Shown piece by piece: positions 8,172 to 10,895 of a stretch of 15,475 bases of DNA. The notes below the pieces were generated by a model. The model searched no databases and was not told where the DNA came from. It saw nothing but the letters and a program-made list of their open reading frames with translations. The stretch comes from a virus. Its lineage: Duplodnaviria; Heunggongvirae; Uroviricota; Caudoviricetes. Positions within the stretch are counted from its first letter, which is position 1; each line of letters starts with the position of its first letter. The position numbers were made by a program, and so were the translations under genes. The stretch lies in the IMG/VR virus record IMGVR_UViG_2558860274_000003. One strand, given 5' to 3'.

Positions 8172-8217
8172 TCGCTTTTCAGCGACGTAGGACGAATGTC
8201 CGTTGTTACAAAGAGCG
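8172..8217 (-). promoter_or_regulatory. nutR-like site: boxA (CGCTCTTTGTAACAA) + small hairpin + boxB-like hairpin (TCGCT-GAAA-AGCGA)
   Basis: Minus-strand sequence immediately after the cro stop reads CGCUCUUUGUAACAA-C-GGACAUUCGUCC-UACG-UCGCUGAAAAGCGA. This is the same architecture as the nutL candidate on the plus strand, and the boxA element resembles the rrn/lambdoid boxA consensus GCUCUUUAACAA. Confidence 0.5.
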
Positions 8218-8227
8218 GATCCGCTTA

Positions 8228-8443
8228 TTAAGCGGCTTTGTGTTCCGGCGGGAACACGTCATCAAGACTGACTTTTGCGCCTAACTTGTTTAGGCATGCA
8301 ACAAGAGCACGGCATGTTTTAAGGTCTGGGAAGCGACGACCAGATTCCCAATGTCCGATAGCTCCCTGTGTGCATCCAACTGCCTTAGCAAGTGTTGTTT
8401 GAGAGATATTCAGTGACTCTCGATATTTTCGTAGGTTGCTCAT
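8228..8443 (-). CDS. cro: Cro-type repressor (71 aa, HTH_XRE)
   Basis: Start at the internal ATG (plus 8441-8443) preceded by GGAGGG; the longer ORF would overlap OR and cI. MSNLRKYRESLNISQTTLAKAVGCTQGAIGHWESGRRFP... is a classic Cro/C1-type HTH. It is divergent from cI across a 114-bp operator region. Confidence 0.8.
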   Translation of the reverse strand: MSNLRKYRESLNISQTTLAKAVGCTQGAIGHWESGRRFPDLKTCRALVACLNKLGAKVSLDDVFPPEHKAA

Positions 8444-8557
8444 ATGCCCTCCATAGTAAACACGAATAAAATACAATATGTACTTTAAGAATACAAGTAA
8501 AAATACACATTGTGCATGGATGATTCCAGTACAAAGCGTAATAATAAGGACATGAAA
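8444..8557. promoter_or_regulatory. OR-like divergent promoter/operator region (PR for cro, PRM for cI)
   Basis: 114-bp AT-rich interval between the divergent cro and cI starts. It contains short dyads (TACAATATGTA 8472-8482, CACATTGTG 8506-8514) and three ATACA(A/C) repeats (8471, 8491, 8503). A PR candidate on the minus strand is TTGTAT-17 bp-TATTTT (8496 to 8468). Confidence 0.55.
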
Positions 8558-9211
8558 ATGAAATGGTATGAACTGGCTAGATCCAGAATGAAAGAGCTCG
8601 GCATAACTCAAGAGAAGTTAGCCGAAGAGCTAGGTATGACGCAGGGTGGGATTGGACACTGGTTGCGCGGATCTCGTCATCCATCTCTTAGTGATATTGG
8701 TGTGGTGTTTAAATACCTTGGTATTGATAACATATCATTCAACCACGACGGGACATTTTCACCTGTTGGCGAATACTCATCGGCCCCAGTTAAAAAACAA
8801 TATGAGTACCCTGTTTTTTCTCATGTTCAGGCTGGGATGTTCTCTCCAGAACTCAGAACCTTTACCAAAGGCGATGCGGAGAGATTGGTAAGCACAACCA
8901 AAAAAGCCAGTGACTCTGCATTCTGGCTTGAGGTTGAAGGTAACTCAATGACCGCACCAACAGGTTCCAAACCCAGCTTTCCTGACGGGATGTTAATTCT
9001 GGTTGACCCTGAGCAAGCTGTTGAGCCCGGCGATTTCTGCATAGCCAGACTTGGTGGTGATGAATTTACCTTCAAGAAACTGATCAGGGATAGCGGTCAG
9101 GTGTTTCTACAGCCACTAAACCCACAATACCCAATGATCCCATGCAATGAGAGTTGTTCCGTTGTGGGGAAAGTTATCGCCAGCCAATGGCCTGAAGAGA
9201 CGTTTGGGTGA
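8558..9211 (+). CDS. cI: CI-type prophage repressor (217 aa): novel N-terminal HTH fused to a lambda-CI-type C-terminal S24 autocleavage/dimerisation domain
   Basis: The C-terminal about 130 aa ([26 protein letters not shown]...[22 protein letters not shown]) match lambda CI essentially residue for residue as I recall it, including the Ala-Gly cleavage site and Ser/Lys dyad region. The N-terminal HTH ([30 protein letters not shown]) is different. Start chosen at ATG 8558, 7 nt after AAGGA; ATG 8552 is an alternative. Confidence 0.88.
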
Positions 9212-9250
9212 TGAAACCACTTTTATCTACAATTTACAGGGCGGTAAACA

Positions 9251-9808
9251 TTGGCAAAAATAGATGATTATCAGCCAAGCCAAGTAGAAGTTGATAAAGT
9301 ACTTTATTGTAAAAAAATAGTTAACTTTTCTGGCGTTAAATGGAAACAGAAACCAAGTCGCTCTGATATGTGGCTACAAGCTCATATCATCCCCTTGGAT
9401 GAGGATTGTATACCTATACAAGGGCTAAAGTTTGAACTGAAATGGAAACCAGATCAGGATTCAGAACCTGATGACCCGATTTCTTACCCTAAAATAAATA
9501 TTATTGCTTTCTATCATAACAAGAGGGTTTTCGCGGTAGATACCTATCACTTTGACAAACACACGAATAGTTACAAGGTCGATCATCCGAAGTACCAAGA
9601 TATCATTTACGGTGCTCACTACCATGTATACTATGAAGAAGCTGGATACTATAGTGATAGAATAGCGTTTCCAATCGAAGATGACATAAACCCAGATGAC
9701 CTGGTAGGGTATTGGAATTACTTCTGTAAACATCTGAACATAACTTACTCTGGGAGAATACCTTTACCGCTTGAAGATGAGTCGGGGCAAATGGGGTTTG
9801 GAATATGA
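9251..9808 (+). CDS. Hypothetical protein A (185 aa), acidic, Tyr/His-rich, no recognisable family; first gene of the cI-linked cassette
   Basis: ORF starting 39 nt after the cI stop on the same strand. The only in-frame start near the 5' end is TTG 9251 with a weak upstream AGGG; the next ATG is codon 40 (9368). No hydrophobic segments. Contains a HYHVYYEE motif. The stop overlaps the start of gene B (ATGA at 9805-9808). Confidence 0.55.
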   Translation: MAKIDDYQPSQVEVDKVLYCKKIVNFSGVKWKQKPSRSDMWLQAHIIPLDEDCIPIQGLKFELKWKPDQDSEPDDPISYPKINIIAFYHNKRVFAVDTYHFDKHTNSYKVDHPKYQDIIYGAHYHVYYEEAGYYSDRIAFPIEDDINPDDLVGYWNYFCKHLNITYSGRIPLPLEDESGQMGFGI

Positions 9809-10557
9809 TGTGCTCAACAGTGATCTCACAACTAGGTTTCGAATGCCATCCAATAGGCAAGACCTTGAGAATTATCAGTCCATTCACTTACTGTGATGAT
9901 GGAGAGCATGTCGGTGCCTTTATCCGTGAAGTCAATGGTAGGTATTTAGTTAGTGACAGATGCGATGCCTTAATGAATATGGAGGCAAGAGGGATCTCGC
10001 TTACCAAAAAACGACTTGATGAGATACGACAATTACTGCTTAAAGAAGGCGCAGAACTCAATGCTCGAGGAGAAATCATTGCTTGGGCAACAGAAAAGGA
10101 TGTCGGTGCGATTACATCGAACATAATTAGAGCTGGTATACTCGCATCAACTTTGTCGTTAGACTGGTATCAGCCAGTTCAAGCTGAAAAGTTTGAAAGT
10201 ATGGTTATTGATTATCTATATCACACAGAGCTTAGAGACGCACTTTCTCTTCGTGAAAACGTATATGGCTTGAGTGGACATCAAATTACCGTCCCTGTAA
10301 CAATAAAAACCGACATACCTAAATACGTTTTTACATCAAGCGTGAAACACGGAGGAAGCTGGAATAGTGCTTACTCATTGCTTGGGAAACTAATTGATCT
10401 TAAAGCTTCAAGTGAGGAGTATAACAACAGATTTGTTGTTATAGACAGCGAAGCAATTGGTGATCAAATGCAACAACTCTCCTTACTCTTCCATGAATCA
10501 AGCCAAGTTCTACCATTCTCCAAAAGAGAGACTTGGATTAAGAGACTTGCAGCATAA
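9805..10557 (+). CDS. Hypothetical protein B (250 aa), no recognisable family; second gene of the cI-linked cassette
   Basis: ATG overlaps the stop of gene A (translational coupling). Soluble-looking protein. Immediately followed by a strong intrinsic terminator. Confidence 0.65.
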   Translation: MMCSTVISQLGFECHPIGKTLRIISPFTYCDDGEHVGAFIREVNGRYLVSDRCDALMNMEARGISLTKKRLDEIRQLLLKEGAELNARGEIIAWATEKDVGAITSNIIRAGILASTLSLDWYQPVQAEKFESMVIDYLYHTELRDALSLRENVYGLSGHQITVPVTIKTDIPKYVFTSSVKHGGSWNSAYSLLGKLIDLKASSEEYNNRFVVIDSEAIGDQMQQLSLLFHESSQVLPFSKRETWIKRLAA

Positions 10558-10561
10558 TACA

Positions 10562-10589
10562 ACCCGGCCTCAGCGCCGGGTTTTCTTTG
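10562..10589 (+). terminator. Rho-independent terminator (tImm/tL-like) ending the cI-A-B transcription unit
   Basis: ACCCGGC-CTCAGC-GCCGGGT, a 7-bp GC-rich stem, followed by TTTTCTTTG, 5 nt after the gene B stop. Confidence 0.7.
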
Positions 10590-10776
10590 CCTCACGTTCG
10601 CCCACCTAAAAACACATAACCAATTATATTTATTGAAAAATAAATAGATGCAACCCACTAAACCACGCAATTCTGATCTCTCCTTACATCGCCGAGACAA
10701 TACATCCACGCTAAAAAACAACACTATTAAATACAAAGCGTTATAAAAAACCACGCCAACTTACAACAAATTGTAT

Positions 10777-10811
10777 TGATCTTGTAAATTACATATCGTA
10801 CTATTTAACCG
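10777..10811 (+). promoter_or_regulatory. Candidate PL promoter with overlapping dyads (OL-like)
   Basis: TTGATC (10777-10782), 16-bp spacer, TACTAT (10799-10804). Flanked or overlapped by dyads ACAAATTGT (10766-10774) and TGTAAATTACA (10783-10793). Positioned about 40 nt upstream of nutL. Assignment is by position and motif only. Confidence 0.4.
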
Positions 10812-10849
10812 TCAGCAGGACGCTGGAAGCCAAATGGAACAGACTGGCA

Positions 10850-10895
10850 GGCTCTTTAAACAACGTCGACTCTCGACTACGTGGCTGAAAAGCCA
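10850..10895 (+). promoter_or_regulatory. nutL-like site: boxA (GGCTCTTTAAACAA) + small hairpin (GTCGA-CTC-TCGAC) + boxB-like hairpin (TGGCT-GAAA-AGCCA)
   Basis: Read directly from the sequence. Shares the TACG-T(G/C)GCTGAAAAGC(C/G)A core with the nutR candidate on the other strand. Confidence 0.55.

Follow-up and report, generated by a model that had tools for sequence, protein, structure and literature searches.

Paired nut sites with an apparent GNRA-tetraloop boxB and a co-varying N arginine-rich motif in a degraded lambdoid prophage

In the literature searched, boxB falls into three structural classes: the pentaloops of lambda and of P22 and the hexaloop of phi21 (PMC12027372, PMC12550061). 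Does the N protein of a prophage carried on a 15,475-nucleotide (nt) stretch of viral DNA (Caudoviricetes; IMG/VR record IMGVR_UViG_2558860274_000003; the whole stretch is called the window below) pair with a boxB of one of these classes, or of another? A reading made from the letters alone (the sequence-only reading) had placed paired nut sites in the window and proposed that a distinct boxB accompanies an N protein with a distinct arginine-rich motif (ARM). We consider it likely that the two elements are the nutL and nutR of a lambdoid N system with the layout of phages H-19B and 933W, and that their boxB is a GNRA-tetraloop hairpin bound by the N ARM. The firm ground for this is the anatomy of the sites, their placement, their conserved and compensated helices, and a strict co-variation of ARM and loop.

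Both sites lie where they had been placed, nutL at 10850-10895 on the plus strand and nutR at 8217-8172 on the minus strand, and each consists, in order, of boxA (GCUCUUU), a short spacer hairpin, UACG and boxB. In nutL, boxA (10850-10863, plus strand; DNA GGCTCTTTAAACAA, RNA GGCUCUUUAAACAA) includes GCUCUUUA and is kept in relatives; one C separates it from the spacer hairpin GUCGA-CUC-UCGAC (10865-10877), which a UACG linker (10878-10881) joins to boxB, UGGCU-GAAA-AGCCA (10882-10895). The minus-strand nutR has boxA at 8217-8203 (DNA CGCTCTTTGTAACAA, RNA CGCUCUUUGUAACAA), again one C, the spacer hairpin GGAC-AUUC-GUCC (8201-8190), which is the same as in H-19B nutR, UACG (8189-8186) and boxB UCGCU-GAAA-AGCGA (8185-8172). 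In both boxB elements, a GAAA loop of 4 nt tops a 5-bp stem that is closed by a U-A pair. The earlier description, a GAAA(A) loop on GGCU and CGCU stems, correctly set them apart from lambda and P22, but the loop is better read as a 4-nt GNRA loop and the stem as five pairs. An 8-nt NusB-NusE (S10) site within boxA has been described (PMC3177189); as a sequence match, nutL GCUCUUUA agrees with it at 8/8 positions and nutR GCUCUUUG at 7/8.

The sites lie within the immunity region of a lambdoid prophage (7900-11900), in which the lambda leftward direction corresponds to the plus strand. nutL is ~40 nt past the start of the leftward promoter PL, with the N start codon 98 nt further on, and nutR begins 10 nt past the cro stop codon, so that nutL is in the PL transcript and nutR in the PR transcript, both in sense orientation. 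Both position and orientation are those expected of nut sites. The 18-nt core shared by the two sites (TACGTSGCTGAAAAGCSA) has exactly two exact matches in the window, and still two when two mismatches are allowed; ~0.01 matches are expected, and two matches occurred in 0/200 shuffles. Coordinates, placement, orientation, the shared core and the family of the N protein all bear out the nutL and nutR assignments of the sequence-only reading.

UACG is conserved in phages of both ARM/boxB classes defined below and in H-19B, 933W and HK97, with CACG at one site. The spacer hairpin of relatives keeps its stem and varies in its loop. Scored by script, a hairpin of at least 4 bp (Watson-Crick) ends exactly at (U/C)ACG in 25 of 26 unique spacers, compared with 2.8% of shuffles, and the stems comprise four unrelated sequences (GUCGA/UCGAC, GGAC/GUCC, GAUUC/GAAUC and GGUGA/UCACC). 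These patterns of sequence conservation agree with a structural role for the spacer hairpin. The layout with short hairpin and UACG is, by sequence, that of the H-19B/933W NUT type, which the earlier description had overlooked.

The N gene (10994-11266, plus strand; 90 aa) follows PL, nutL and a 98-nt leader, with GGGAGG upstream, and its product matches Pfam PF25694 (N_peptide) over its full length (residues 1-90, E = 3.4e-32). No PDB chain matched the N sequence at E up to 10. In the alignment of N homologues the ARM spans residues 10-26 (TAASRRRARRANLQSQE; 11021-11071, plus strand), with the core SRRRARRA at residues 13-20. In an ungapped alignment, the ARM helix AASRRRARRANLQSQ and lambda AQTRRRERRAEKQAQ are identical at 9/15 positions; the window helix retains the Ala, the Thr/Ser cap, all five arginines and both glutamines, with Leu for Lys14 and Glu for Trp18. 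The Trp18-aligned residue is Glu26, and no aligned sequence of this ARM type has a tryptophan in the ARM region. Identity to the P22 ARM is 6/18. The ARM had been called neither lambda's nor P22's; it does differ from both, but lambda's is the closest. In the center of N, the stretch LHRPTPSR resembles lambda NRPILSL, which we take to be a NusA-binding segment. The C-terminal motif CLPNVALYAAGYRKSKQLTAR (11201-11263, plus strand) is the same as in H-19B N and nearly invariant among the aligned homologues. Over the last 24 residues, identity is 79% to P22, a likeness that had been rightly noticed, and 92-96% to other N proteins. As the C-terminal region of N binds RNA polymerase (PMC3526286), this motif would by analogy do the same.

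Different ARM types occur on related N backbones in the homologue alignment. Type A, RRRxRRAxLQ(S/N), is that of the window and of Cronobacter and Pantoea-type relatives; type B, RRRERLKAKALANGVLAREE (RRRERLK), is 7 residues longer and is found in H-19B, 933W and HK97. A P22-like type (GNAKTRRHERRRKLAIE) belongs to P22-type N, a phi21-like type (GTAKSRYKARRAELIAERR) to phi21-type N, and a fifth type (NARNRRRARRQAQREQ) was found at two loci (L112 and L113). For types A and B we fetched 80 loci each from viral contigs, together with contigs for eight divergent representatives, and counted the loci in which both nut sites were found. Among 89 type A loci, 88 have GAAA at both nutL and nutR and one, from Cronobacter, has GAAA at nutL and GCAA at nutR. 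All 75 type B loci have GACAA at both sites. ARM type and loop type are concordant in 164/164 loci, with no mismatch, and class A extends to the Pantoea-type and Cronobacter loci.

The nutR loop always agrees with an N gene that lies 1.3-4 kb away, across the immunity region. Four clusters of loci defined by the 3' end of cro (at least 90% identity) and one cluster defined by the downstream flank each contain both loop types. Because shared flanks carry either loop, and the loop still fits the distant N, the association is not one of simple linkage. Two natural swaps illustrate this at close range. In the first, what sets a type A locus (L105) and a type B locus (L111) apart is the ARM and the two boxBs (nutL, UGGCU-GAAA-AGCCA in L105 vs. 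UGGCC-GACAA-GGCCA in L111; nutR, UCGCU-GAAA-AGCGA vs. UCGCC-GACAA-GGCGA); boxA, UACG, the flanks on both sides and the spacer hairpin GGUGA-UGGAU-UCACC are the same. In the second (L096), a type A ARM sits on an H-19B-like N of 120 aa; nutL has an H-19B-like context with boxB AGGCU-GAAA-AGCCU, and nutR also has GAAA. As positive controls, the phi21-like ARM occurs with a CUAACC hexaloop and the P22-like ARM with GCGCU-GACAA-AGCGC, in agreement with PDB entries 1NYB (phi21) and 1A4T (P22) as described in PMC12550061. The concordant loci and the two near-isogenic swaps support the earlier proposal that a distinct boxB accompanies a distinct N ARM.

Several observations weigh against this interpretation, or against parts of it. 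One is redundancy among the surveyed loci: many of them are prophages of E. coli and near-identical, and independent events are fewer than the counts. Another is a 6.8-kb contig (L046; positions 1-4200) that joins the window-type N and nutL to lambda immunity, with cI N-terminus, cro, nutR (GCCCUGAAAAAGGGC) and cII all of lambda. The contig would suit a reading in which the nut sites are genuine but type A N is indifferent to the loop, acting on lambda GAAAA and P22/H-19B GACAA as well, and in which the association reflects linkage and shared descent. Such indifference would also fit an ARM helix with 9/15 positions and the whole arginine patch of lambda retained, along with the main determinants of lambda N-boxB recognition that deep mutational data identify (residues 6-11 of N and, in the RNA, loop positions 1 and 3 with the U-A pair that closes the stem; PMC12027372). 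We nevertheless regard this reading as unlikely. Recombination within nutR flanks that are >90% identical should have yielded mismatched loci, yet 164 A/B loci are concordant and none is discordant. The L046 arrangement is moreover unique, being present in 0/5,426 complete E. coli genomes and 0/50,697 phage records, and its junction lies inside the cI C-terminal domain that both immunity types share at 95% DNA identity, a likely site of chimeric assembly. L046 may be an assembly chimera, a dead or defective recombinant, or a hint that window-type N recognizes the lambda boxB; given the unique arrangement and the chimera-like junction, we draw no conclusion on cross-recognition from it.

Folding provides the remaining points of difficulty. 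The boxB hairpins are stable when folded alone (-6.4 kcal/mol for nutL and -4.9 for nutR, z ~ -3.9), as are the spacer hairpins (-4.9 and -5.2 kcal/mol, respectively), but in a 57-61 nt context the minimum free energy (MFE) fold closes around the spacer hairpin, with boxA (segment GGCUCUUU or CGCUCUUU) paired to the loop and 3' arm of boxB. At the two window sites this alternative is more stable (-14.1 vs. -12.0 and -16.5 vs. -11.7 kcal/mol), the boxB pair probability in context is 0.02-0.03, and the same fold is predicted for many E. coli-type copies. Reading the loop as a tetraloop, furthermore, takes the closing U-A to be paired; were it open, the hairpin would have a stem of 4 bp and a loop of 6 nt, which stands as the alternative. 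The folding check suggested by the sequence-only reading therefore gives stable hairpins in isolation and a different MFE structure in context, and the case for the boxB hairpin rests on comparative data, which settle it.

Counting was limited to type A boxB, of which there are only eight distinct sequences, since MAFFT alignments of whole nut sites and of the two boxB classes together placed the loop-length gap out of register. In these eight sequences all 40 cells of the helix are paired (100%), and three of the five pairs have changed on both sides (U-A/A-U, G-C/C-G and G-C/A-U), with the loop-proximal C-G and U-A pairs invariant. The covariation score was reached by 0/500 shuffles, and shifting the partner columns abolishes pairing; one further site beyond the eight has a G.U pair. 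Type A loops vary between GAAA and GCAA only, the latter in Cronobacter. As only these two loops occur, closed by an invariant U-A, we read the loop as a canonical GNRA tetraloop. An Rfam scan of 7800-11400 with E up to 10 returned noise only, with no nut or boxB family match.

Could the boxA-boxB fold itself be a functional state that gates the Nus factors and N, with no free boxB hairpin? Its predicted stability at both window sites and in many E. coli-type copies is what speaks for such a state, which we hold to be very improbable. Predictions for the divergent type A sites (L096, L099-L102, L105, L108 nutL) do not include this fold and give boxB a probability of 0.76-0.98; complementarity between GCUCUUU and AAAAGC is nearly automatic, and the energies of the whole sites are not unusual (z = -1.2 and -1.9); and the boxB helix is backed by compensatory changes. 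We provisionally treat the fold as a by-product of that near-complementarity. The idea that it acts as a regulatory switch was dropped, the fold not being conserved across the class. The base preceding GCU in boxA is the same as that at position 2 of the boxB stem, G at nutL and C at nutR. Chance palindromes, or sites bound by protein at the DNA level, can be dismissed as explanations of the two motifs: the motifs are short inverted repeats, as such explanations would require, but far fewer matches are expected by chance, their orientation tracks transcription on both sides, compensatory changes and the G.U pair keep RNA pairing, and H-19B nutR, which has been used in experiments, is a homolog.

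Among known systems, H-19B, 933W and HK97 are close to the window. Their N proteins are of the same family, with EAISS..LHRPT.SR in common and, in H-19B, an identical C-terminal stretch of 21 residues, and their sites share a spacer hairpin abutting UACG followed by a 5-bp boxB with U-A closure. H-19B nutR reads CAAU, GGAC-AUUC-GUCC, UACG, UCGCU-GACAA-AGCGA, GUCCC; its spacer hairpin, UACG and boxB stem are identical to those of the window nutR, and its tR1-side flank is nearly so. Within boxB, the two differ in the loop only, GAAA (4 nt) in the window and GACAA (5 nt) in H-19B. In H-19B and 933W, nutL reads CAAC, GAUUC-GAAUAU-GAAUC, UACG, GCGCU-GACAA-AGCGC, and the 933W record labels it as nutL. 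Other differences are in the ARM (window RRRARRANLQSQ, RRRARRANLQ; H-19B RRRERLKAKALANGVLARE, RRRERLKAKAL-type and 7 residues longer), in the length of N (90 aa vs. 127 aa) and in boxA, which is good at both window sites, absent from H-19B nutL and GCUAUUU in H-19B nutR. The H-19B spacer stem-loop was reportedly described by Neely and Friedman in 2000 as a 'reducer' in which pairing is required and sequence is unimportant, and H-19B N is said in the same work to need NusA, but not boxA, NusB or S10. H-19B nutR has been described as carrying two hairpins, with N protecting boxB and NusA and Rho binding the spacer (PMC3526286).

The lambda boxB is a GNRNA pentaloop with a GNRA-like fold from which the fourth base is extruded (PMC12027372). 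In lambda N, Trp18 lies at the end of the ARM helix and stacks. The window shares with lambda the U-A closing pair, loop G1, a purine at position 3, the final A and a boxA upstream, together with the ARM pattern A..(T/S)RRR.RRA..Q.Q. It differs in having a 4-nt loop without an extruded nucleotide (lambda loops are GAAGA and GAAAA), Glu in place of Trp18, another stem sequence, and a spacer hairpin and UACG that lambda lacks; the rest of N is unrelated in sequence except for an RP..S stretch. The P22 boxB is a GACAA pentaloop with C looped out, and that of phi21 a CUAACC hexaloop (PMC12550061). With P22 the window shares the stem end and closing pair GCU...AGC and a related N C-terminus, and GACAA without its looped-out C is GAAA. 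The window loop is one base shorter than that of P22, its ARM is unlike the P22 ARM given above, and P22-type sites have neither spacer hairpin nor UACG. As with phi21, the fold bound by the ARM helix is GNRA-like, and one N that shares the C-terminal backbone (L197) carries a phi21-like ARM, but the phi21 loop is a hexaloop of other sequence on a longer stem. Because deletion of the extruded base from either the lambda or the P22 pentaloop gives GAAA, the window class can be seen as a 'bare' GNRA version of these hairpins.

The two loci with the fifth ARM type have the boxB CCCGC-CGAAAU-GCGGG, whose 6-nt loop is a GAAA with one unpaired base on either side (C before it, U after it), and are without a spacer hairpin; their nutL is ~150-290 nt upstream of N (the distance differs between the two) and their nutR follows cro. 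This ARM and its boxB are another pairing class, of which no description was found in the literature searched.

For the window class, we infer N-boxB binding, its specificity and antitermination from the sequences compared here. The PL and PR transcripts would carry the nut sites, and the N ARM helix would bind the GAAA tetraloop of boxB. Since the lambda determinants are present (arginines within residues 6-11, the U-A pair, loop G1 and purine 3), docking may be lambda-like, with a shorter helix on the tetraloop and without the tryptophan stack. boxA would recruit NusB-S10, the spacer hairpin would shorten the distance between boxA and boxB, and LHRPTPSR and the C-terminus of N would contact NusA and RNA polymerase, with the predicted outcome that polymerase reads through the tR1 and tL terminators. 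That type A N and the GNRA tetraloop form a fourth, functionally separate N-boxB class, rejecting the GACAA of the H-19B-type phages that share its nut scaffold, is a more tentative proposal, on which we are nearly evenly divided and lean slightly to the cautious side.

The module is widespread. nutL and N together, at a coverage of at least 80%, are found in 759/5,426 complete E. coli genomes (~14%), and the module is also present in the Shiga toxin (Stx) phages VT2-Sakai (99% DNA identity), Stx1 converting phage and phage 1717. The same N, at 100% identity, occurs in Stx1 converting phage NC_004913, in phages 1717, YYZ-2008, 2851 and phi-8, and thus in inducible Stx phages. A supposed 933W-type N in VT2-Sakai proved wrong; this phage carries the window-type N. 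A scan of genome contigs for N gave 12 loci, mostly matches to the C-terminus only. Already known are the N gene, which is annotated, and the H-19B-type layout, on which there is experimental work. None of the sampled records carrying the window-type N has a nut site annotation, and the nut sites of these Stx phages were not found described in the literature searched. That literature, which included few older subscription papers and to which a prior description may therefore have escaped, yielded neither a tetraloop boxB class nor its co-variation with the type A ARM. An N-boxB pairing class with a true GNRA tetraloop, as delineated by sequence, is apparently undescribed.

The start of N is annotated upstream in NC_004913, Nil2 and VT2-Sakai (114 aa; window 10922-11266; L001 3429-3773); some protein clusters hold forms of 140-143 aa, and in many complete E. 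coli genomes the product is a 'hypothetical protein'. Both the Pfam match and the ribosome-binding site GGGAGG speak for the 90-aa form starting at 10994. E. coli-type N genes also occur on contigs filed under unrelated species (L084 and L087, a metagenome-assembled genome of Segatella copri; L085, Xanthomonas pisi, 394 bp), with 98% and 41% identity to the window N; these contigs are probably binning or assembly contamination.

PL (plus strand) has a -35 hexamer TTGATC (10776-10781), a 17-nt spacer and a -10 hexamer TACTAT (10799-10804), with a start at ~10811. It was below threshold in a promoter consensus scan; NC_004913 has a promoter annotated at the same hexamer positions, and the start region TCAGCAGGACGC matches the start of the lambda PL transcript. 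The N leader (10896-10993, plus strand) contains a predicted long hairpin (~10910-10985), and the 5' leader is predicted to pair with the ribosome-binding and start region. The fold of 10812-11000 has an energy of -68.3 kcal/mol (z = -4.2), with 0/200 shuffles equally stable, and is reminiscent of the RNase III-sensitive lambda N leader. On the other side, the region 3' of nutR (8087-8171, minus strand) is homologous to the H-19B nutR/tR1 region and nearly identical by direct reading to positions 5681-5760 of the H-19B locus (L083). The H-19B nutR/tR1 is Rho-dependent (PMC3526286). A terminator-like hairpin lies at 8142-8125 (minus strand), ~30 nt after the nutR boxB and inside the tR1-homologous region, and a second one at 8221-8235 (plus strand) overlaps the cro stop codon, reading CCGCTTATTAAGCGG then CTTTGTGTT.

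In the rest of the immunity region, cro (8443-8228, minus strand) encodes a helix-turn-helix protein of 71 aa, and cI (8516-9211, plus strand) a repressor with helix-turn-helix and S24 peptidase domains; the C-terminal (S24 peptidase) half of cI (8800-9211) is almost identical to lambda cI, and the N-terminal DNA-binding domain differs. Two overlapping accessory genes (9251-10557, plus strand) lie between cI and a strong terminator downstream of them (10561-10582), in the position of lambda rexAB. This pair matches the PADLOC candidate defense pair PDC-M24 (A, E = 4.8e-4; B, E = 6e-10), as well as Pfam DUF6978 (under the Pfam cut-off) and DUF1828. sieB follows beyond N on the opposite strand.

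Phage homology ends at ~8003, within cII, with IS66-family and IS2-like insertion sequence (IS) elements beyond. The PR operon is cut by IS elements after ~28 cII codons, and the PL operon is heavily truncated 3' of N by an IS3-family element. The N/nut system of the window is thus an intact piece of a degraded (dead) prophage, both of whose target operons are truncated. At a coverage of at least 80%, the window as a whole is present in none of the 5,426 complete E. coli genomes, so that it may come from Shigella or from an E. coli rich in IS elements. The flanks (1-8000 and 13250-15475) contain IS2-like, IS66-family and IS3-family elements; ompT (1-954), an AraC-family gene (1953-1204) and a gene for a leucine-rich-repeat protein (3016-3789) are on the left, and the 3' end of a tyrosine recombinase gene (15119-15475) is on the right.

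For the window itself the significance is small, as its prophage is degraded, and the finding is a testable addition to a classic RNA-recognition system, with no mechanistic surprise. N-boxB is the textbook model of RNA recognition by arginine-rich peptides and the basis of lambda-N tethering tools. A natural plain-GNRA class would give a minimal reference complex, with natural near-isogenic swaps against the GACAA class, and may supply an additional tethering pair. It also permits a direct test of the requirement for an extruded loop base in NusA assembly. If lambda requires its extruded loop base in the NusA-dependent step, the class described here would be a natural system that dispenses with the base. 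In Stx phages, N-dependent early transcription comes before the expression of late and toxin genes, and if the fourth class is real, a change of one loop nucleotide together with a swap of the ARM cassette would switch antitermination specificity between Stx-phage modules that are otherwise interchangeable.

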